From assembly GCA_963830585.1 (NCBI GenBank), contig CAWHNA010000003.1, forward strand, positions 792,903-856,902: DNA of 64,000 nt. The letters are read 5' to 3'. Shown in pieces: positions 36,947-47,030 of this stretch; position 1 is the first letter of the stretch, and the number at the start of each line of letters is the position of its first letter. The position numbers were made by a program, and so were the translations under genes. The notes beneath the pieces were generated by a model. It was not told the DNA's origin and did not search any database. It was given only the letters and a program-made list of their open reading frames with translations. The stretch comes from an uncultured Chloroflexia bacterium. Its GTDB lineage: Bacteria > Chloroflexota > Anaerolineae > Anaerolineales > Villigracilaceae.

Positions 36947-37772
36947 ATGGGTAGTTCCACCAGAAGTATAAATGGATGGATCATCATTTTCATGAACGAA
37001 AACGATATTCGCAAAGCAATTTCCAACCTTCCCTTGGGTGGTCTCCGCACCTTTGAGCAGGTCGGTTCCACGAATGATACAGCCCTTGCTTGGGCGGCTG
37101 ATGGTGCCCCGGACTTGGCAATGGTCTTCGCGGATGAGCAGAAATCCGGTCGTGGTCGGGGAAGTCGCCGCTGGTTTACTCCGCCGGGTGCGGCATTGGC
37201 ATTCAGTATCGTAAATCGTCCGTCTACAGCCGAGGAACAGTCCATCCCGCTCTTCTCCGGGTTGGGGGCGATTGCAGTTTGTGAAGCACTGGGATTACGG
37301 GGGTTGCATCCGGAGATCAAGTGGCCCAATGATGTTTTACTTGACCGCCGTAAAGTCTGTGGTATTTTGGCTGAAGCGGTCTGGACGGGGGAAAAAGTGG
37401 ATTGCATTATCCTGGGGATAGGGGTTAATGTTAACCCTGCTTCGGTGCCTTCAGAAGAACACCTGAATTATCCCGCCACCTGCATTGAGACTGTGCTTGG
37501 GAAAAGTGTGGACCGCTTGGTATTGCTCCGCGACATCCTCCAGGCACTGCTCTATTGGCGCAGTCTATTGACCAAGGATGTTTTTCCGGCTGCCTGGAAT
37601 AAATATCTTGCTTTCCGTGGTGAGCAGGTTGAAATCCGCTCTGAGGGGGTACCACCCCAGGTGGGGTTGGTGGATGGGTTGGAACGCGATGGCGAGCTTG
37701 CGTCTCCGCGCCCTGGATGGGCAGTTTTTTGTGGTGCAATTTGGGGAAGTGCAGCTGCGTCCTGTCCTGTGA
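36947..37772 (+). pseudogene. birA: biotin--[acetyl-CoA-carboxylase] ligase BirA, one frame break near the 3' end
   Basis: GSTND..ADEQKSGRGRGSRRW (biotin-binding GRGRxGR motif) and KWPNDVLL. The frame breaks at about 37692 after ..GLERDG. The +1 frame supplies the expected C-terminal beta domain LRLRALDGQFFVVQFGEVQLRPVL, with a stop at 37772. An alternative start is at 36992. Confidence 0.8.
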
Positions 37773-38214: not shown

Positions 38215-40779
38215 TCATTTTAGCGGCATTTCAAACTGTGATCCCGGGTCGGGGGCAGCCTCGCCATTGGTCTTTACCCCTGCGCGTTTGAGTTCAGCCG
38301 TGGAAGTGCGGGCGATCGAAACAACCCGGTCTCCTTCCTTAACCCCCATCATATGACTGCCGCGCGTTGCACGTCCGGCTTTCTTTACTTCCTTGACCTT
38401 CATTCTCATTACCATTCCGTTTGCCGAGATGATGGTCAGGTCGTCAGCTTCCTGGACGACCCGCGCGGACGTAACCGTGCCGATCTTGTCGGTCGCTGCT
38501 TTGGAGATGCTCTGCACTCCGCTGGTGGCACGCCCCTTGGCTGGATATTCACTGAGCGGAGTGCGCTTGCCGTACCCCAGCGTGGTCACCAAAACCAGGT
38601 CTCCGCCTTCTTCGATCACCTCCATGCTGGTAACTTTATCATTCCCGGAAAGTTTGATGCCTGTCACTCCTCCGGCGCTGCGTCCCATGCTCCTGACCTT
38701 GTTTTCTGCAAAGCGCAGAGCCTTGCCATGCTCGGTGACCAGGATGATTTCGTTATCGCCATGAGTTAAGCGCGCCCACCCCAGTTCATCATCGTTATCC
38801 AGGCCGATGGCAATGATCCCCGAGGGTCGCACCGCGGACAGCTCGGATAGCGCCATGCGTTTGATTTTTCCGTTCCGGGTCGCCAGGGTGATATAACCGG
38901 CCGTATCGAAATTGGGGACTGAAAGTGCCGCGGTGACAACTTCGCCTGCATCCAGCGACAGGACGTTCACCAGCGGGATGCCTTTGGTGGTCCGGTCAGC
39001 ATCCGGGATTTGGTACACCTTCTCGGAATATACCTTGCCATGGTCTGAGAAGAAGAGCATCGTGTCCAGCGAACGGGCAGGGATCAGGTTCAGGACCTCG
39101 TCCTCTTCCTTGGTGGCATGCCCCGTAACTCCCTTTCCGCCCGCTCCCTGGGATCGATACGCGGTTGCTGCAACCCGTTTGACGTAGCCGCGCGCCGTCA
39201 GTGAGATCAGTACAGCCTCATCCGGCACCAGGTCGGACTCGCTCAGGTTTTCAACCGCCTCGGCCGGCAATGTGTGTCCGGCGCTCGTCACCGTATTTCT
39301 CGGAAAGTTCGCGCAGGTCATCCTGGATCAGGGTCAGGATTTTCTTGGGATTGGCGAGCAGGTCTTCCAGGTGGGCGATTTGTCCTTTTACTGCCTTGTA
39401 CTCGTCTTCAATCTTTCTGTCGTTCAAGGGCAGCCAGCCGGCGCAGCTGCATGTCGAGGATGGCCTGCGCCTGGAGTTCGGAAAGCTTGAAGCGCTTCAT
39501 CAAGCGCTCCTTGGCTGCCTCGGCATCCGGAGATTCTTTAATGGTCTGGATGACAGCGTCCAGGTTGTTGAGCGCGATCGTCAATCCTTCAAGGATGTGT
39601 GCCCGTGCCCGTGCCTTGTCCAGTTCGAACTGGGTCCGTCGGGTGATGACCACTTGCCGGTGGTCGAGGAAAATTTGCAGGGCTTTCTTGAGCGGCAGCA
39701 GGCGCGGTTCTCCATTTACGAGTGCCAGCATCTGCACCCCGAAGGTCGTTTGCAGCGATGTGTATTTATACAGCTGGTTGAGCACCTTCTTCGGTTGGGC
39801 ACCGCGCTTGAGTTCGATCACGATGCTCATTCCCCGCCGGTCAGATTCATCCCGCAGGTCCGAGATGGTGTCCATTTTTTCATCCCGTACCAGGTCAGCG
39901 ATCCGCTCGATGAGCGTGGATTTGTTCACCTGGTAAGGGATCTCGGTGATTACGATGCGGTGACGGTTGCCGGCCATTTCCTCGATGTGGGCATTCCCGC
40001 GCAGGACGATGCGCCCCTTCCCGGACCCGTACGCAGCTTCGATTCCCTCTGTCCCCACGATGATCCCGCCCGTTGGGAAGTCCGGTCCCGGGATGAATTT
40101 CATCAGGAATTCGATGGGTACCTCGTCCATCGTGTCGTAATTGTCGATCAGGTAGATCAACGCTGTACAAATCTCCTTCAAGTTATGCGGGGGGACGTTG
40201 GTTGCCATTCCGACCGCAATGCCGGTCGCTCCGTTGAGCAGCAGGTTGGGAACGCGCGACTGGCAGGACGGTTGGTTCCTGTAACGAACCGTCGAAGTTA
40301 TCGGTGAAATCCACTGTGTTTTTTTCGAGGTCGGCCAGCATTTCTTCCGCCATCCGGTTCAGGCGCGCTTCGGTGTAACGCATGGCAGCCGGGGCATCTC
40401 CATCCACTGAGCCGAAGTTACCCTGTCCGTCTACCAGCAGGTATCGCATTGAAAAGTCTTGGGCCATGCGTGCCATTGATTCATACACGGCTGCATCGCC
40501 GTGCGGGTGATATTTACCCAGCACCTCTCCCACGATACGGGCGGATTTTTTGTATGACGAATTGGCACGGATACCCATGTCCTGCATCGCATACAGTATG
40601 CGCCGGTGTACAGGTTTCAATCCATCCCGCGCGTCCGGCAGGGCTCGCGCCACGATGACCGACATGGCGTAATCGAGGTACGCCGTCCGCATCGTTTCGT
40701 CGATATCCGCCGCCTGGATGGTACCGATGGTCTGTTTCGGGGTTTCCGGGGGTTGCCCGGTGGGTTCGGGATCTACCAT
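38215..40779 (-). pseudogene. gyrA: DNA gyrase subunit A, three single-base frame breaks
   Basis: Three colinear ORFs cover it. 40183-40791 has ..[34 protein letters not shown]. 39408-40208 has [17 protein letters not shown]... 38215-39321 has six C-terminal beta-pinwheel blades. The breaks are near 40260 ([12 protein letters not shown]), 39412 (LERQK/IEDEYK) and 39265 (DERRTHI/AEAVENL). The start is ATG 40779 (GAGGA RBS). Span length is 3n, consistent with three +1 insertions. Confidence 0.9.
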
Positions 40780-40863
40780 ATTTGTCCTCACGCGGTAAGG
40801 GCACAGCGCCGCTGTGCCCCTACGGGGGAATCGAATTAGCCAAGGAATTATACCGCAAACAGC

Positions 40864-40892
40864 TTGTCAAATCGTTTGCGGACGTGTATAAT
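40864..40892 (+). promoter_or_regulatory. near-consensus promoter of tRNA-Pro
   Basis: TTGTCA (40864-40869), 17-nt spacer, TATAAT (40887-40892), 15 nt upstream of the tRNA 5' end. Confidence 0.65.
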
Positions 40893-40907
40893 CCCGGCTT
40901 GCTTGCT

Positions 40908-40982
40908 CGGGGCGTGGCTCAGTCCGGCTAGAGCGCTGCGTTCGGGACGCAGAGGTCGGCGGTTCAAATCCGCCCGCCCCGA
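40908..40982 (+). tRNA. tRNA-Pro (anticodon CGG)
   Basis: CGGGGCGTGGCTCAGTCCGGCTAGAGCGCTGCGTTCGGGACGCAGAGGTCGGCGGTTCAAATCCGCCCGCCCCGA. The cloverleaf has a 7-bp acceptor stem, an anticodon stem CTGCG/CGCAG and a loop UU-CGG-GA. Confidence 0.9.
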
Positions 40983-40987
40983 CAGAA

Positions 40988-41013
40988 GGACTCTCGGTTC
41001 GGGAGTCTTTTTT
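40988..41013 (+). terminator. intrinsic terminator after tRNA-Pro
   Basis: GGACTCtcggttcgGGAGTC followed by TTTTTT. Confidence 0.6.
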
Positions 41014-41084
41014 AATACGAAATCAGTATTTTCCTCTCTTGACGGATGGCAGTGGGCGGGTGTATCCTCTCGTTCTAACTAAAT

Positions 41085-41243
41085 ACCTCGTTAGGCGAGG
41101 CGTCTGCGTGATAAACAGGCCATTGTCCCGAAACGTCGAAAGACGCCAAGGGATAGACCAGGCCGGGCCGGATTAAGGCCCCGCTCAAAGTGGCTGGGAG
41201 ATCGTACCCTACGATACGCAGTGCCAAAGCTCGACCAGGAGGT
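41085..41243 (+). promoter_or_regulatory. M-box (ykoK leader) Mg2+-sensing riboswitch aptamer
   Basis: Conserved blocks, from my memory of the B. subtilis mgtE leader and Rfam RF00380: CCUCGUUAGGCGAGGC, ACAGGC, CCCGAAA, AAAGACGCCAAGGG, UUAAGGCC, CAGUGCCAAAGCUCGAC. P1 is closed by CCUC (41086-41089) pairing with GAGG (41239-41242). A possible promoter is TTGACG (41039), 18-nt spacer, TATCCT (41063). Confidence 0.8.
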
Positions 41244-41282
41244 GCCCCCGGGCAGTCCGTGGGCTTGATTGTTGATTTTCAA

Positions 41283-41312
41283 AACCTCCTGGATTGCGGA
41301 GGTTTTTCTGTT
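41283..41312 (+). terminator. M-box expression-platform terminator
   Basis: AACCUCC-uggauugc-GGAGGUU followed by a U-run. The left arm CCUCC can alternatively pair with GGAGG at the 3' end of the aptamer. Confidence 0.7.
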
Positions 41313-41380
41313 TTGTGCTTGGTGGTTTCGATTCTAGACCGGGTTTGGTTTCGCAAGATCGAATTTTTACGTGAAAGGAG

Positions 41381-41572
41381 GTGATCGCGTGGACGCAGAT
41401 GGTATTCCGCTATATTACAATAACCAATCGACAGAAAGCGCATTTTTTGGATCAGCTGGACGGCGTTCGCGCCTGCATCACCTTACCCCCGATTGGCTCC
41501 TTTTCTTTCCGGGGTGAACCAGACAAATGCATGGTCCTGGGTACTGCCCCAAGAAACGCCGCCTTCTGTTGA
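41381..41572 (+). CDS. hypothetical small ORF (57-63 aa) in the M-box-controlled leader transcript
   Basis: AAAGGAGG at 41373-41380. The track ORF is MIAWTQMVFRYITITNRQKAHFLDQLDGVRACITLPPIGSFSFRGEPDKCMVLGTAPRNAAFC. The start is ambiguous: GTG 41381, ATG 41399, or GTG 41389 in another frame. The stop lies inside the next terminator stem. Coding status is unproven. Confidence 0.3.
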   Translation: MIAWTQMVFRYITITNRQKAHFLDQLDGVRACITLPPIGSFSFRGEPDKCMVLGTAPRNAAFC

Positions 41573-41597
41573 TAAATCAGGCGGCGTTTTGCATTTA
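41554..41597 (+). terminator. second strong intrinsic terminator upstream of the MgtE_N-CBS gene
   Basis: AAACGCCGCC, 16-nt loop, GGCGGCGUUU, followed by UGCAUUU. Confidence 0.6.
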
Positions 41598-41660
41598 ATT
41601 GTGCTGAATATCCGCCATTTTTGACTGCTCTTGCAGTCCTCTGAATTCTGGAGGTGTTCC

Positions 41661-42906
41661 ATGGCTTATTTGAGCGAAATAATTGGTCGCCCCGTTACTG
41701 ACCTCGACGGGATGCCCGTTGGCAAATTATCAGATGTTATCGTGCGGCCCTGGGCTGAGTTCCCGCACCCGCTGATTGAGGCGGTGGCTATTAATTGGCA
41801 AAGGCGGGACGCGCATCCTTCCGTTCATGGCGGTGGCGGCGTTACTTTCTCCGGTCATCCCATTGAAATACCGGTTGGACGATGTGCCGCAATTTGATTT
41901 GAAAGATGATGACGTCCTGCTTTCCCGCGATGTGCTGGATAAGCAGATCATTGATACCGATGGTGCACGGGTTGTGCGCGTTAATGACGTGGAGCTGGTG
42001 CGCGTAAACGGTACGATCTATGTCAGCAACGTGGACGTATCCTGGGTGGGGATTATCCGCCGCTTGGGGCTGGTCGGTCTGGCTCATTTTCTAGGTGGTC
42101 ACCTTAAAAAGAAGGGGATAGCTTGGGACGATGTGGAATTGATGCGCCGTGACCAGGAGATGCATTTACGCGTCCCCGCCGAGAAACTCCATGAATTGCA
42201 CCCCGCTGACCTGGCGGAAATTGTCAGGGACCTGAATAAATTGGAAAGCGGTCAACTGCTGGATACGCTGGATGTCCCTCACCTGGCGGATACCCTCGAA
42301 GAGGTGGAACCGGAATTCCAGGCGGAATTGGTCGAGCATATGTCGAATGAAAAAGTCGCAGACTTGCTCGAAGAGATGGAACCTGACGAAGCCGCGGACT
42401 TGCTCGGCGACCTCCCCAAGGAACGCAAGGAAGATTTGCTTGCCTTGATGGAGAAGGAGGATGCCGATGATGTTCGCAAACTTCTGACTTATCCCGAGGA
42501 TTCTGCCGGCGGCATTATGACGACCGAGTATGCCTCCATCCAACCCAATTTGACAGCTTCCGAAGCGATCAAGCAGTTGCATGGCATGGCGGACGAAGTT
42601 GAGACGATGTTTTACGTCTATGTGGTGGATGGCGACCAGTGCCTGGTTGGAACCTTCTCCTTGAATAATTTGATTTTTGCCAAACCCGGTCAAATGGTGT
42701 CGGATTTTATGACCAAACACCTGATTACGGTGAATTTGACCGATGACCAGGAAACCGTCGCGCAGACCGTAGCCAAGTACGACCTGCTGGCGGTCCCGGT
42801 GGTGGATGACCAGAACCACATCCATGGGATCGTCACCGCTGACGATGCCCTCGATAAGATCATTCCCACCGCGTGGAAGAAACGCCTGCCGCGCTTCTAT
42901 CGCTGA
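41661..42906 (+). pseudogene. PRC-barrel x2 + MgtE_N + CBS-pair protein lacking any MgtE membrane domain, one frame break
   Basis: ATG 41661 follows GGAGG at 6 nt. The first part is MAYLSEIIGRPVTDLDGMPVGKLSDVIVRP..HPLIEAVAI (PRC-like). A +1 shift near 41790 leads to GKGGTRILPFMAVAAL..DKQIIDTDGARVVRVNDVELV (second PRC-like repeat). This is followed by acidic MgtE_N helices (LHPADLAEIV..EPDEAADLLGDLP) and two CBS motifs. The protein ends at ..TAWKKRLPRFYR with no TM segment. Confidence 0.75.
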
Positions 42907-42923
42907 TTTCAAAAAGGGGAACC

Positions 42924-44201
42924 ATGACCAACGCCATCATGAAACGCGGCTTTTTTCAGCGATACTGGAAGAATATATTGATTTTCCTGTCGGTCTTCGG
43001 ACCGGCGACGATTACCGCCATGTCGGATAACGATGCAGGCGGCGTTGCCACCTATTCGATCGCAGGTGCCAGGCTCGGCTACCCAATCCTGTTTTTGCTT
43101 GTCATTATCACCATCTTGCTGGGCGTCACCCAGGAAATGGGTATGCGCCTTGCAATTATCAGTCGCAAAGGGTTGGCTGACTTGATCCGCGAGAAATTCG
43201 GTCTTCGTACGGCGATGTTCATGTTCGGCGCACTGCTGATCGCCAACCTGGGCACGTTGATCACGGATCTTTCCGCTGTCAAGACCACCAGCACGTTGCT
43301 GAACCTTCCTGCCATACCTTCCGTGCTGGTGATCCTGGTTATTTCTTTCATTTTTATTGTCAGAGGCAACTATAAGATCACCCAGGCGATCATGCTCCTC
43401 GCCAGCCTGTTTTTTATCACCTACATTATTTCAGCGATCAAGGCAAAACCAGATTGGGGGTTGGCAGTCTCCAACCTGCTCTATCCTCATGGAGTCGCGA
43501 TTACTCCTGCATATATGCGCGATTATCTGTTGATCGGCATGGGTGTGCTGGGAACGACGATTACACCCTGGGGACAGTTTTTTATCAGCAGTTTTGCATA
43601 TGATAAGAAAATTGAGAAGGGCAAGATTAACTATTCCCAGCTCGAAACATATTGGGGCGCATTCCTTACCGATTTCTTTTCATTTTTTATGATCGTAGCC
43701 ACGGCTGCCACCCTTTTTATAAATCATATCCCTCTGGTTGCAGGCGAACAGGCTGCCCTGGCGATTAAACCCTTTGCAGGTGAACTGGCTGGTACCTTGT
43801 TCGCCATAGGCATCCTCAACGCCGGGTTTATGGGTGTGATTATTGTTTCGCTTTCCACTGCATACGCGTTTGCCGAGTTCTTCGGTCTTTCCGGAAGTCT
43901 CAATGATAGTTATAAGAAAAGCAAAACTTTCTATTTCCTGTTCGGCCTGCAGCTGTTTGTTGTTGGTGTGATTGTCATCTTCACCAAGCTGTCTTTGTTC
44001 AAAGTGGCGATCGTCACCCAGACGATCAACGCCATTGCTCTTCCGCTCGTCTTTTTTTACCTGATCAAGCTGACCAATGACCGTGAGCTGATGGGCCATT
44101 TCGCAAACAATAAATTCCAAAAATATTTTGCCATTGTTTGCACGATAATTATCGTCATCGCCTCGGTCTTTACCTTGATTTCATATTTCATCAAAGCTTA
44201 G
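42924..44201 (+). CDS. NRAMP-family divalent cation transporter lacking the canonical Met/Asn metal ligands (NRMT-like, putative Mg2+ transporter)
   Basis: 425 aa and polytopic. TM1 reads FGPATITAMSDNDAGGVATY (canonical DPGN becomes D-A-G-G). TM6 reads LGTTITPWGQFF (canonical MPH becomes T-P-W). It starts 17 nt after the MgtE_N-CBS gene. Confidence 0.7.
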   Translation: MTNAIMKRGFFQRYWKNILIFLSVFGPATITAMSDNDAGGVATYSIAGARLGYPILFLLVIITILLGVTQEMGMRLAIISRKGLADLIREKFGLRTAMFMFGALLIANLGTLITDLSAVKTTSTLLNLPAIPSVLVILVISFIFIVRGNYKITQAIMLLASLFFITYIISAIKAKPDWGLAVSNLLYPHGVAITPAYMRDYLLIGMGVLGTTITPWGQFFISSFAYDKKIEKGKINYSQLETYWGAFLTDFFSFFMIVATAATLFINHIPLVAGEQAALAIKPFAGELAGTLFAIGILNAGFMGVIIVSLSTAYAFAEFFGLSGSLNDSYKKSKTFYFLFGLQLFVVGVIVIFTKLSLFKVAIVTQTINAIALPLVFFYLIKLTNDRELMGHFANNKFQKYFAIVCTIIIVIASVFTLISYFIKA

Positions 44202-44337: not shown

Positions 44338-45709
44338 TTACTCCAGAGGAGCTTTTTCCCGTTTCGCCTGGATTTCCGCTCGCGCCTGCGCATGTCCCGC
44401 CCGGCTGAGTGGGTAGAAGAGCGCAAAAATGATCCCGCCCAGCAGGAGCACCGAAGGGACCGGTCCGGTCAGGATGCGGATGGCAAGGATGGTCGATGGT
44501 TTCTGCGTGGCGGCATTGGATACGTAACCGCTCCAGTCCAGCACGAGCAGCGTCAGCGGGATGGCGATGGAGGAGGCCACTTTCTTGAACAGGGAAACCA
44601 GGCTGTAAAAGACGCCCTCGTGGCGCTGACCGGTCGCCAGTTCATCCACTTCCACCGCGTCCGGGATGATCGCCCAGGTCAGCACGTGGATGGCTGAAAC
44701 GCCGATCCCTGCCAGCACTGACATGACCAGCACCAGCGGCAGCCCGGCGGACGGGCTGAGGAAGATCAGCGTGATCATGATGGCCGACAGGAAGATCATG
44801 CCCGGCCACGTAGGCTTTGCGTTTATCCGTTTTGCGTGAGGCCCAGTTCCAGAATGGCAGGACCAGCAAGGCAGTGATGAAGATGGCACCCAGGATGATG
44901 TCGCTCTGGGCTTCCAGGTGCATGCGGTATTTCAGGAAATAGAGCAGGAACGCCTGGATGATGTCCGCCGCGGTCCAGGTGAACAGGAAAATTCCGGCCG
45001 CGAACAGGAAGGGCCGGTTCTTCCAGACTGCCCGGAACGACTCGCGCAGGCTCGGCTGGCTCTGTGTGAAATATTCCGGTTTCTCATGTGTCCCAAAGAA
45101 GGTGAACAGCAGCGGCAGCGCGCAGATCGCTCCGAAGATGATCCCCATCGTGAATACCCGCCCCGAGTTTTCCGGTCGCATCGTTCCGATAATTATTAGC
45201 GGCACGATGAATGCCACCAGGCTCCCGATGATGGAAAATGCCATTCGAAAGGTTGTCAGGGAAGTGCGTTCATCGTAATCCTGGGTCAGTTCGGGAGTCA
45301 GCGCCACGTACGGCATGGTGACGAATGTGTAGGAAGTATCGAACAGGAAATATGCAACTGCGTAATAGGCGCACAACCAGAACTGGCTGTCCGTTGGGGG
45401 GCGGTACCACATCATCGCGAACATCAACCCGAATGGGATGAACCCGAACAGCAGGAAGGGACGCCTGCGTCCCCAGCGGCTGCGTACCCGGTCGGTGAAG
45501 AAACCGATCAGCGGGTCGTTGATATAATCCCAAGTGCGGCCGATGAAGATGGCCAGGGCAGCATAAGCAGGTTTTATGCCCACCACGTCGGTCATGAAGA
45601 TGGCAAACAGCACCTGCATGGTCGTGTCGGTGCAGGCAAACCCGAAGTCGCTGATACCGTATAGGAATTTTGTGATGCGGGGAAGTCGGTCTTGGACGGC
45701 AGTGGTCAT
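44338..45709 (-). pseudogene. MFS transporter, glycoside-pentoside-hexuronide (GPH) cation symporter family, one frame break
   Basis: ATG 45709 (AAGGAGAT RBS). The N-terminal part has ..LYGISDFGF..DVVGI..GRTWDYINDPLIGFFTDR..RWGRRRPF. The frame is lost at about 44805 (GCC GGG CAT where GCC GGC ATG is expected). ORF 44338-44889 supplies the C-terminal 6 TM helices. Confidence 0.8.
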
Positions 45710-45838: not shown

Positions 45839-47030
45839 TTACTCGCTCACCCGCCGGAACCTCCAGAGTGCCAGCCCAAAAAAGAGCACGGCATACCCCA
45901 GCAGGGCTGCTGCCGGCACAAGGACGGAGTTGAAACCCAATCCCCGCCCCACGATGTTTTTGAAACCGTCCAATGCCCACGCCACCGGTGAAAAGTGTCC
46001 CACCGTCTGGAAGGCAGCACCGGTGACTTCCAGCGGAACCCATGCTCCCCCCAACCCGGAAAGGACGAACATTGGGATCAGCGAGAACATGACCGCCTGC
46101 TCCTCTGATTTCGCCAGGACGCCGATCAGCAGTCCCAGCGCAGCGATGCATACCGCCGTCATTGCCGCCACCAATAAGCGTTGCCAGGGGCAGCCGCATG
46201 TAGTCCACCTTCAAAAACTGCCCAAAAATGATCATCACCACGAACTCGCTGAAGATCATTACGAAGATCGCCAGGTAGTGCCCGAACAGGATCTGGATTC
46301 GGCTAGTGGAAGTGGTTAACAACCGCTGCAGCGAGCGCGTCTTGCGCTCATTGACAATGATCGTGGCTGCCGTCAGCAGTCCTGCAATGGCAAACTGGAT
46401 CATCATGGACGGAGAGGATGATGACATGGACATAATGTTTTGATTTTGCGGTATGGCGGACACGCCGGAAGTGACCGAAATCTGGATGGGCGGGTTCTGC
46501 CAGGCCACTAGCGCTGCCGCCAGGGCCGGGTCGAAAGCTGCTGGATCGTTTGTCATGGTCGCCGTGATATTCGCCGTCCGCACCGCGCTCCCCAATCGTT
46601 GCGCGGCTACCAGCACTTCATACTCGACCGTGGTGGTTGAGGGCTGGGACGGGTCGGCGTGGAAACCCAGTTTTAATGGGTTCCCGTCATGCAGTGCCTG
46701 TCCGTATCCGGTCGGGATCACGATGGCGGCAGCCAGCTTCCCGCTCCCCACCAGCTTTACAAGGTCTGCCTCGCTGCGCCCGGCGGTTTCGTCCAGGCGG
46801 ATCACGCTGGAGGTTGTCAGCAGGCTTTTCAGGTTCGTGCTCAGGCTGCTGCCGTCCAGGTCCAGGATACCCACCGGCAGGCGTGTGTCGGTCGTCTTTC
46901 CCGAGCCGCCGAAAGCCAGTCCGAATAGGATCGTAAAGGCAGCCGGCATGATCAGGAGAAAAAGGAAGGTCATCCGGTTTCGCAGGATTTGGCGCAGGTC
47001 TTTTGCGGTAATATCAAATATTTTTTGCAT
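45839..47030 (-). pseudogene. ABC-2 type exporter permease (second permease), one frame break
   Basis: The N-terminal 290 aa of track ORF 45270-47030 (MQKIFDITAKDLRQILRNRMTFLFLLIMP.., large external loop) join ORF 45839-46174 (LVAAMTAVCIAALGLLIG..FSPVAWALDGF) at about 46178. The remaining 290 aa of the 586-aa track ORF are out-of-frame read-through and are rejected. Confidence 0.75.

Follow-up and report, generated by a model that had tools for sequence, protein, structure and literature searches.

An M-box-controlled Mg2+ uptake operon of an uncultured Chloroflexota bacterium pairs an NRMT-type carrier with a pore-less MgtE module bearing PRC barrels

We analysed a stretch of 64,000 nucleotides (nt) from an uncultured Chloroflexia bacterium of the Anaerolineales (GenBank assembly GCA_963830585.1, contig CAWHNA010000003.1, positions 792,903 to 856,902 of the forward strand; hereafter the window). 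As listed in Table 1, it contains an operon for Mg2+ uptake that is under M-box control and belongs to a type known from Shin et al. 2014 (PLoS Genet, PMC4072509); here an NrmT/NRMT carrier gene follows a gene whose product is a cytosolic MgtE module without pore and with two N-terminal PRC barrels. The identity of each part, that is of the M-box, of the MgtE module (the partner, or sensor) and of the carrier, is close to certain. The best explanation of the whole, to which we give a probability of about 0.55, combines these identities with a gating role of the partner on the carrier. According to Shin et al. 2014, most NrmT genes adjoin a gene for MgtE's N-terminal cytoplasmic domain, and the two are often co-transcribed behind an M-box. 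An original prediction, made from the window sequence without database searches, had taken the pairing to be uncharacterised; this part of it falls, as MgtE-fragment/NrmT operons were already contained in the 2014 paper.

Table 1. Features of the operon, in window coordinates.
Feature	Position	Strand	Remarks
Promoter-like site TTGACG-18 nt-TATCCT	41039..41068	+	consensus scan, 9/12 matches; consensus match only; just upstream of M-box
M-box (Mg2+) riboswitch aptamer	41080..41248	+	RF00380, 132.9 bits vs gathering score 44
Terminator T1, the M-box expression platform	41281..41316	+	stem 41281-41306, then U tract; terminator scan
Upstream open reading frame (uORF)	41377..41572	+	Shine-Dalgarno (SD) sequence GGAGG 41377-41381; GTG 41389; TGA 41570-41572
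Second terminator-like hairpin T2 (CGCCGCCU...AGGCGGCG) and U tract	41555..41595	+	uORF stop codon within loop
Partner gene, PRC-PRC-MgtE_N-CBS-CBS, pore-less	41661..42906	+	SD GGAGG 41650-41654
Two PRC-barrel-like repeats	41661..42171	+	repeat 1 41661-41886; repeat 2 41914-42171
MgtE_N (42196-42501) and CBS pair (42514-42861)	42196..42861	+	correspond to MgtE cytosolic Mg2+-sensing domain
Basic C-terminal tail IPTAWKKRLPRFYR	42862..42903	+	in place of MgtE plug helix and pore
NRMT-type (NrmT) carrier, 425 amino acids (aa)	42924..44201	+	PF01566, 8e-69; ATG 42924, 17 nt after sensor stop

Pfam assigned PF03448 (MgtE_N, 5e-28) and PF00571 (two CBS domains, 5e-19) to the partner, together with a PRC domain. 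PF05239 (PRC) matched the window fragment at E=1.2e-4 (22.4 bits) and the protein P0002 at E=2.2e-6 (28.0 bits against a gathering score of 21.2), the latter being a partial match of residues 2-29. The second PRC repeat was below Pfam significance in the window protein and was detected in homologues (residues 83-170 of P0194; two stretches in P0158 and P0235). In the AlphaFold model of the partner, which has a predicted local distance difference test score (pLDDT) of 89.7, residues 11-68 and residues 95-169 each form a beta-rich module. The predicted architecture of two PRC-like repeats, MgtE_N and a CBS pair therefore stands by Pfam for MgtE_N, the CBS pair and the first repeat, and the second repeat was recovered only through homologues and the model. 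The five-helix MgtE pore, predicted to be missing, is absent: no Pfam match to the pore PF01769 was obtained in the partner, TIGR00400 scored 202 against a cut-off of 232.75 and aligned with profile positions 22-252 of 450 only, and the protein ends with ...IPTAWKKRLPRFYR before a stop at 42906, 14 residues past the CBS pair.

Residues 159-400 of the partner matched the MgtE cytosolic domains of E. faecalis (2oux, E=8e-42) and T. thermophilus (2yvy, E=6e-37). When the model was compared by Foldseek with 2yvy, the Mg2+-bound MgtE cytosolic domain, a TM score of 0.85 and a root-mean-square deviation of 2.0 A were obtained. In sequence and in fold, the partner thus carries the same MgtE_N and CBS-pair module as T. 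thermophilus MgtE (2YVX, 2YVY), and the aligned acidic residues are conserved. The window partner differs from that protein in that it lacks the plug helix and the five-helix pore, has gained two N-terminal PRC barrels, has its ATP-site residues replaced and is not a channel. Six residues of T. thermophilus MgtE (E59, D91, D95, D226, D247 and D250), reportedly the ligands of the interface Mg2+ (Hattori et al. 2007 and 2009), align with D210, D242, D246, D374, D395 and D398 of the partner. The positions of D210, D242, D246, D395 and D398 were acidic in 30-35 of 36 diverse pore-less members.

A library-wide search returned many full-length matches of 400-440 aa and also proteins of ~600 aa that matched residues 1-400 and then continued as a PF01769 pore. 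In two of the latter, P0151 and P0158, the PRC-PRC-MgtE_N-CBS region is 39-41% identical to residues 1-400 of the window partner and is fused to a true MgtE pore, whereas the window protein stops at its basic tail and the NRMT gene comes next. It had been argued that the PRC barrels suggest gating of a non-MgtE transporter; this argument finds no support, because the same architecture is found on pore-bearing proteins. The barrels are thus a property of a PRC-MgtE subfamily, and their use as a mark of NRMT partnership is ruled out. In the literature searched we found no paper linking PRC barrels with MgtE.

The C termini of the partners were compared. Most partners end in a short polybasic tail, for example LPxxWKKRLPR or KRKRRKV, and tails of the LPxxWKKRLPR type persist across the family to identities of ~35%. 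In L145, L151 and L156 (the Coriobacteriia Slackia and Aveggerthella, and an Acidaminococcaceae bin) a single hydrophobic helix replaces the basic tail. At the Slackia piriformis locus L151 (3001-4350) the partner stop is directly followed by the carrier ATG, the carrier is a close EleNRMT homologue and the M-box is absent. In L128 (56-1921) and L167 (2733-4658) the PRC-PRC-MgtE_N-CBS region runs on into a membrane region, ~200 aa long and without Pfam assignment; the L167 form is 641 aa long, and L128 has an Nramp gene directly downstream. The C termini thus form a series that starts with the polybasic tail, passes by way of one membrane helix or a Pfam-unassigned membrane region and ends with the true MgtE pore. 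As read from the sequences, this series suggests that the partner module works at the membrane.

The best match of the carrier in the PDB was EleNRMT of Eggerthella lenta (7qia, E=5e-60, residues 16-411). The next structure reached 8e-27 and MntH structures ~1e-13, and the MntH model NF001923 scored 108.8 against a cut-off of 430. The NRMT binding site is marked by DxxG in helix 1 and by TxxA/T in helix 6, and the histidines of helix 6b are lost, the first being replaced by Trp (Ramanadane et al. 2022, PMC8806188); Gln379 on helix 10 of EleNRMT matters for transport (PMC8806188). The window carrier fits this signature, with DAGG at 43032-43043 (D37-A-G-G40), TTIT within GTTITPW at 43551-43571 (T211-T-I-T214, TPW being residues 214-216), Trp in place of the first helix-6b His, and the helix-10 Gln kept in IVTQTIN (within 44010-44030). 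The canonical NRAMP/MntH signature (DPGN on helix 1; A/CxxM and MPH on helix 6) does not occur in the carrier, which reads DAGG and TTITPW. The coordinates confirm what had been predicted, DAGG and TPW in place of DPGN and MPH in a gene that starts 17 nt after the sensor, and the predicted NRMT-like nature of the carrier holds both by the published signature and by EleNRMT as its best solved relative. EleNRMT shares DAGG, GTTIxPW and the helix-10 Gln with the window carrier. At the former Met position EleNRMT has Ala and the window carrier Thr, which is within the TxxA/T signature; EleNRMT was studied alone. Among partner-linked carriers GTTITPW was the commonest helix-6 variant, followed by the EleNRMT-like GTTIAPW. 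EleNRMT transports Mg2+ without proton coupling, and Mn2+ too (PMC8806188).

Upstream of the two genes, the M-box matched RF00380 over its full length in cmscan (model positions 1-169, E=1.2e-29). All four conserved blocks are present exactly as the original prediction had quoted them, and the score is far above the gathering score. The M-boxes of the relatives L001, L007 and L008 scored 123-133 bits. The T1 hairpin (-12 kcal/mol, z-score -2.6) was seen in the leaders of most relatives. When 41075-41320 was folded, the minimum-free-energy structure had the P1 3' strand GGAGG (41238-41242) paired with the T1 left arm CCUCC (41286-41290), so that the anticipated pairing of the terminator's left arm with the aptamer's 3' end is present in the folded RNA. 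This alternative pairing of P1 and T1 is the standard OFF-switch geometry of the M-box, terminator versus antiterminator. The promoter-like site is near-invariant in the close relatives L001, L002 and L004, with one substitution in the second hexamer.

The window locus has the same three components in the same order as the M-box/MgtE-fragment/NrmT operons of Shin et al. 2014 (C. acetobutylicum Ca_c0685 locus), and an intrinsic terminator likewise. In contrast to Ca_c0685, it comes from an Anaerolineales-like Chloroflexota bacterium and not from Clostridia or Deltaproteobacteria, and its partner is one gene where that of Ca_c0685 is split. Between its M-box and the two genes there are, in addition, a uORF and the second terminator T2, and its partner has PRC barrels and a basic tail, neither of which is mentioned in the excerpts of Shin et al. 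2014 used here.

Conservation of the gene pair was surveyed in two sets. The close set consisted of 80 metagenome loci with sensor identities of 61-100%, and the diverse set of 80 loci from species-representative genomes with sensor identities of 33-58%, covering Chloroflexota, Nitrospirota, Desulfobacterota-type bacteria, Firmicutes, Coriobacteriia, Actinomycetota, Dormibacterota and two Methanobacteriaceae bins. A pair was counted when an NRMT-like gene lay directly downstream of the partner on the same strand, and the close-set count was restricted to loci with enough sequence. The order of sensor then carrier was found in 59/59 close loci and in 59/68 diverse loci (56 by this count, two overlapping pairs and L128). 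The gaps between the two genes are short, and certain pairs overlap or abut stop to start. In some relatives another Mg2+ transporter gene stands between the M-box leader and the sensor, either corA (L056, 1541-2476, confirmed by Pfam) or full-length mgtE (L011, 1085-2464). The presence of corA or mgtE within the same M-box operon ties the operon to Mg2+.

Several further features of the relatives were noted. Open reading frames (ORFs) similar to the corA of L056 are present in L047, L048 and L071, and one M-box thus precedes two or three kinds of Mg2+ transporter in such relatives. A second, tandem NRMT paralogue follows the first in L003, L004, L008-L010, L012, L021, L026, L033 and L034; it is ~65-69% identical to the first, and up to ~80% in a partial match. 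The window and L001 are without this second paralogue and have a major facilitator superfamily (MFS) gene next. L095 and L097, from bins labelled Methanobacteriaceae (archaea), contain the partner-NRMT pair without an M-box; their partners are 41-42% identical to that of the window and have the tail PTAWKK(R/Q)VPRMFGR.

We propose the following mechanism for the operon. By analogy with known M-boxes, high cytosolic Mg2+ would compact the aptamer, P1 would hold GGAGG, T1 would form and transcription would stop; at low Mg2+, GGAGG would pair with CCUCC, T1 would fail and the operon would be transcribed. The carrier would, like EleNRMT, take up Mg2+ (and Mn2+) in a proton-uncoupled manner. The partner would bind Mg2+ at the acidic MgtE_N/CBS interface in the manner of MgtE, and in this Mg2+-bound closed form it may restrain the carrier from the cytoplasmic side, the conserved basic tail keeping it at the membrane or on the carrier. 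The partner would then protect against an overload of Mg2+ as a fast negative feedback that supplements the slower control at the RNA level. Cytoplasmic feedback regulation was one of two roles that Shin et al. 2014 offered as speculation for the MgtE fragment, the other being that of a metal chaperone (PMC4072509). Should the partner prove to be a detachable gate for Mg2+, an unrelated LeuT-fold carrier would be controlled in trans by a regulatory domain that is known only within a channel, and it would be explained how a cell with a proton-uncoupled uniporter is kept from Mg2+ overload. The question of what the MgtE-like partner does for NRMT carriers goes back to 2014. The locus adds no new principle to it; the survey provides handles, namely the basic tail or membrane anchor, the acidic interface residues, the pore-bearing PRC relatives, and the leader with uORF and T2 as a possible attenuator.

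A number of observations weigh against this explanation. When the pair of A. capsulatum (Acp2976/2977) was co-expressed in B. subtilis, no further rescue was obtained, and the A. capsulatum carrier behaved mainly as a Mn2+ transporter, with full rescue of a Mn2+ defect and weak rescue of a Mg2+ defect (PMC4072509). Both C. acetobutylicum NrmT (PMC4072509) and EleNRMT (PMC8806188) transport Mg2+ without a partner. In the literature searched, neither a demonstration of partner-carrier interaction or gating nor a characterisation of the partner after 2014 was found, and the EleNRMT paper (PMC8806188) is silent on it. The ATP-binding residues of the T. thermophilus MgtE CBS domains are Y170, R187, D188, N203 and F227 (Tomita et al. 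2017, PMC5529423), and in the clade of the partner they are mostly replaced (R187/D188 by N335/N336, N203 by T and F227 by L375), with Tyr alone kept (Y320). About 8/68 diverse partners (L111, L116, L118, L139, L143, L147, L161 and L162) have no NRMT gene within the 3 kb fetched. The M-box, searched by nhmmer, was upstream in 50/54 close loci and in only 11/73 diverse loci, and its absence was confirmed by cmscan on 20 nhmmer-negative diverse loci; this rules out that an M-box generally accompanies the gene pair. Since the adjacency is widespread and the M-box rare in the diverse set, it is the gene pair that is conserved as a unit, with the M-box as an add-on of certain lineages. In the window itself, T2 stands between the M-box and the operon genes and bears on the extent of read-through from the M-box. 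The null result of 2014 is compatible with gating, since better rescue at low Mg2+ is not what a negative regulator would bring about. Taken by itself, the gating role is put forward tentatively, at a little under even odds.

Its strongest competitor holds that the partner is functional and is not a gate; it would be a chaperone or buffer for Mg2+ or other metals, an assembly or stability factor, or a co-expressed Mg2+-responsive regulator of other targets. The metal-chaperone alternative of Shin et al. 2014 and the co-expression without effect (PMC4072509) favour such a role, as do the partners that have no adjacent NRMT gene, the loss of the ATP-site residues and the nature of PRC barrels as general interaction modules. 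Near-universal tight adjacency in a fixed gene order across phyla argues for the gate, and the C-terminal elements point to the membrane, where a membrane partner fits better than a soluble buffer. We therefore regard a non-gating role as rather improbable, though the most serious of the alternatives.

The leader between T1 and the sensor ATG is ~350 nt long and contains the uORF and T2. The uORF comprises 60 codons (MDADGIPLY...NAAFC) once an extra base near 41416 is ignored. The motif GGAGG-N7-(G/A)TG GAC GCN GAY GGN was found in 45/64 distinct clade leaders, the lowest sensor identity among them being 61%. Its start codon is GTG in some leaders and ATG in others, and the third base of GCN varies freely between invariant neighbours. 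Frame 0 always stays open over 34-64 codons, whereas a stop often closes the two remaining frames within 2-10 codons. Conservation extends over SD, start codon and ~8 initial codons, to which the third-position pattern of variation is confined; beyond them all three codon positions vary equally and codon periodicity is absent. Because codon-like conservation is limited in this way, a conserved, functional small protein is unlikely, and the uORF is possibly a regulatory leader peptide or a motif acting at the RNA level. T2 has a folding energy of -24.7 kcal/mol for 41540-41610 (z-score -3.5), is present in most clade leaders and shows compensatory changes at 5/9 pairs among 20 relatives. Apart from T2, RNAalifold on 29 leaders returned nothing but a weak hairpin that covers the SD and start codon. 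An antiterminator for T2 was searched for in each leader: a recurrent CGGCG box in the uORF can pair with the T2 5' arm, but no better than shuffled controls (z -1.8 to +1.2). A permissive search for a further Rfam family in 41240-41700 gave just a chance-level small RNA match on the minus strand (E=0.87). An alternative hairpin at 41579-41625, in which the T2 3' arm GGCGGCG pairs with a downstream CCGCC followed by TTTTT (-14.3 kcal/mol), is also present in L001, L002, L004, L008 and L014.

The position of T2 raises another explanation, that the M-box mainly controls the uORF and that T2 insulates the sensor and carrier, which would be expressed by regulated read-through or in response to another signal. 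The strong, covarying T2 with its U tract between uORF and operon speaks for it, and direct control of a uORF by an M-box is known from M. tuberculosis pe20, where the platform is translational and termination Rho-dependent (D'Halluin et al. 2026, PMC12810186). The pe20 leader likewise has an M-box and then a conserved SD-preceded uORF ahead of the regulated genes, whereas the window M-box has an intrinsic terminator and a second hairpin, intrinsic-terminator-like, comes after its uORF. The insulation by T2 is countered by the scan, which found no promoter-like site between T1 and the sensor ATG, and by the distance from T2 to that ATG, which is only ~65 nt. TTGACT at 41621 was considered as a promoter element after T2 and rejected, as it would put the transcription start inside the SD. 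Moreover, relatives without uORF and T2 have the M-box directly before the sensor (L055 with a gap of 76 nt; L121, L133 and L168 with ~100 nt), and corA or mgtE is inserted in the same transcription unit in others. We consider the insulation improbable.

A two-stage leader switch can be imagined, in which translation of the uORF would decide whether transcription past T1 continues through T2 into sensor and carrier. If true, this would add a second input, the ribosome or translation status, to Mg2+ sensing; we think it doubtful and less likely than the gating. A different SD-preceded uORF of ~33 codons, MDSGP..., lies behind the M-box terminator in the Firmicutes loci L153, L154 and L164 (Pelosinus, Desulfosporosinus). 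It reads GGAGGTG-N5/6-ATG GAT TCY GGS CCY, ends at the ribosome-binding site of the sensor and is without T2. L153 has two tandem M-boxes. Since Firmicutes operons too carry an SD-preceded uORF, uORFs may be a recurrent and unnoticed part of M-box leaders with intrinsic terminators. The conserved uORF and the covarying T2 between M-box and operon are possibly new, and form a modest lead.

A further explanation concerns the ion, and supposes that the physiological substrate of the carrier is Mn2+ or another divalent ion and not Mg2+. The A. capsulatum member with its adjacent MgtE-like gene, whose Mn2+ rescue was full and Mg2+ rescue weak (PMC4072509), and the Mn2+ transport by EleNRMT (PMC8806188) are in line with it, and so is the Thr found where EleNRMT has Ala (TPW versus APW). 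The high-scoring M-box upstream and the corA or mgtE in the same operon of relatives indicate Mg2+, the NRMT signature permits A or T (PMC8806188), and TPW is the commonest form among partner-linked carriers. A substrate other than Mg2+ is accordingly improbable.

The partner gene is broken in the raw window, where the sensor lies in two frames, with ORFs at 41631-41897 (ATG 41661, stop 41897) and 41776-42906. Relative to three relatives, the break is one extra base near 41791-41793. With this base removed, a partner of 414 aa is obtained that is 97-98% identical to intact homologues from Anaerolineales-type metagenome bins. Isolated 1-nt insertions relative to L001 were found three times in gyrA (38215-40791), an essential gene, and in the sensor at 41791, the MFS gene at 44804, two ABC transporter genes at 46175 and 48414 and a BPL_LplA_LipB-domain gene at 37695. 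The gyrA, sensor, MFS and ABC genes are called intact in those relatives that carry them, and the NRMT gene of the window is free of such a break. Because gyrA is broken in the same way, the frame breaks are probably sequencing or assembly errors and not decay, and in a window that looks so error-rich they should not be read as pseudogenes. That the extra base near 41791-41793 marks a true pseudogene in the source organism, with the carrier working alone, is very improbable, since error is the simpler account of same-kind insertions in gyrA, MFS, ABC and BPL_LplA_LipB genes, the partner is intact in all relatives, and the remainder of the window gene is without decay.

Directly upstream of the M-box promoter lies a tRNA-Pro(CGG) gene (40908-40983), which has the same position in the relatives L001 and L008. 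Within the region 40864-41013 it has a good promoter-like site of its own, TTGTCA-17-TATAAT at 40864-40892, and is followed by a hairpin and a U tract.

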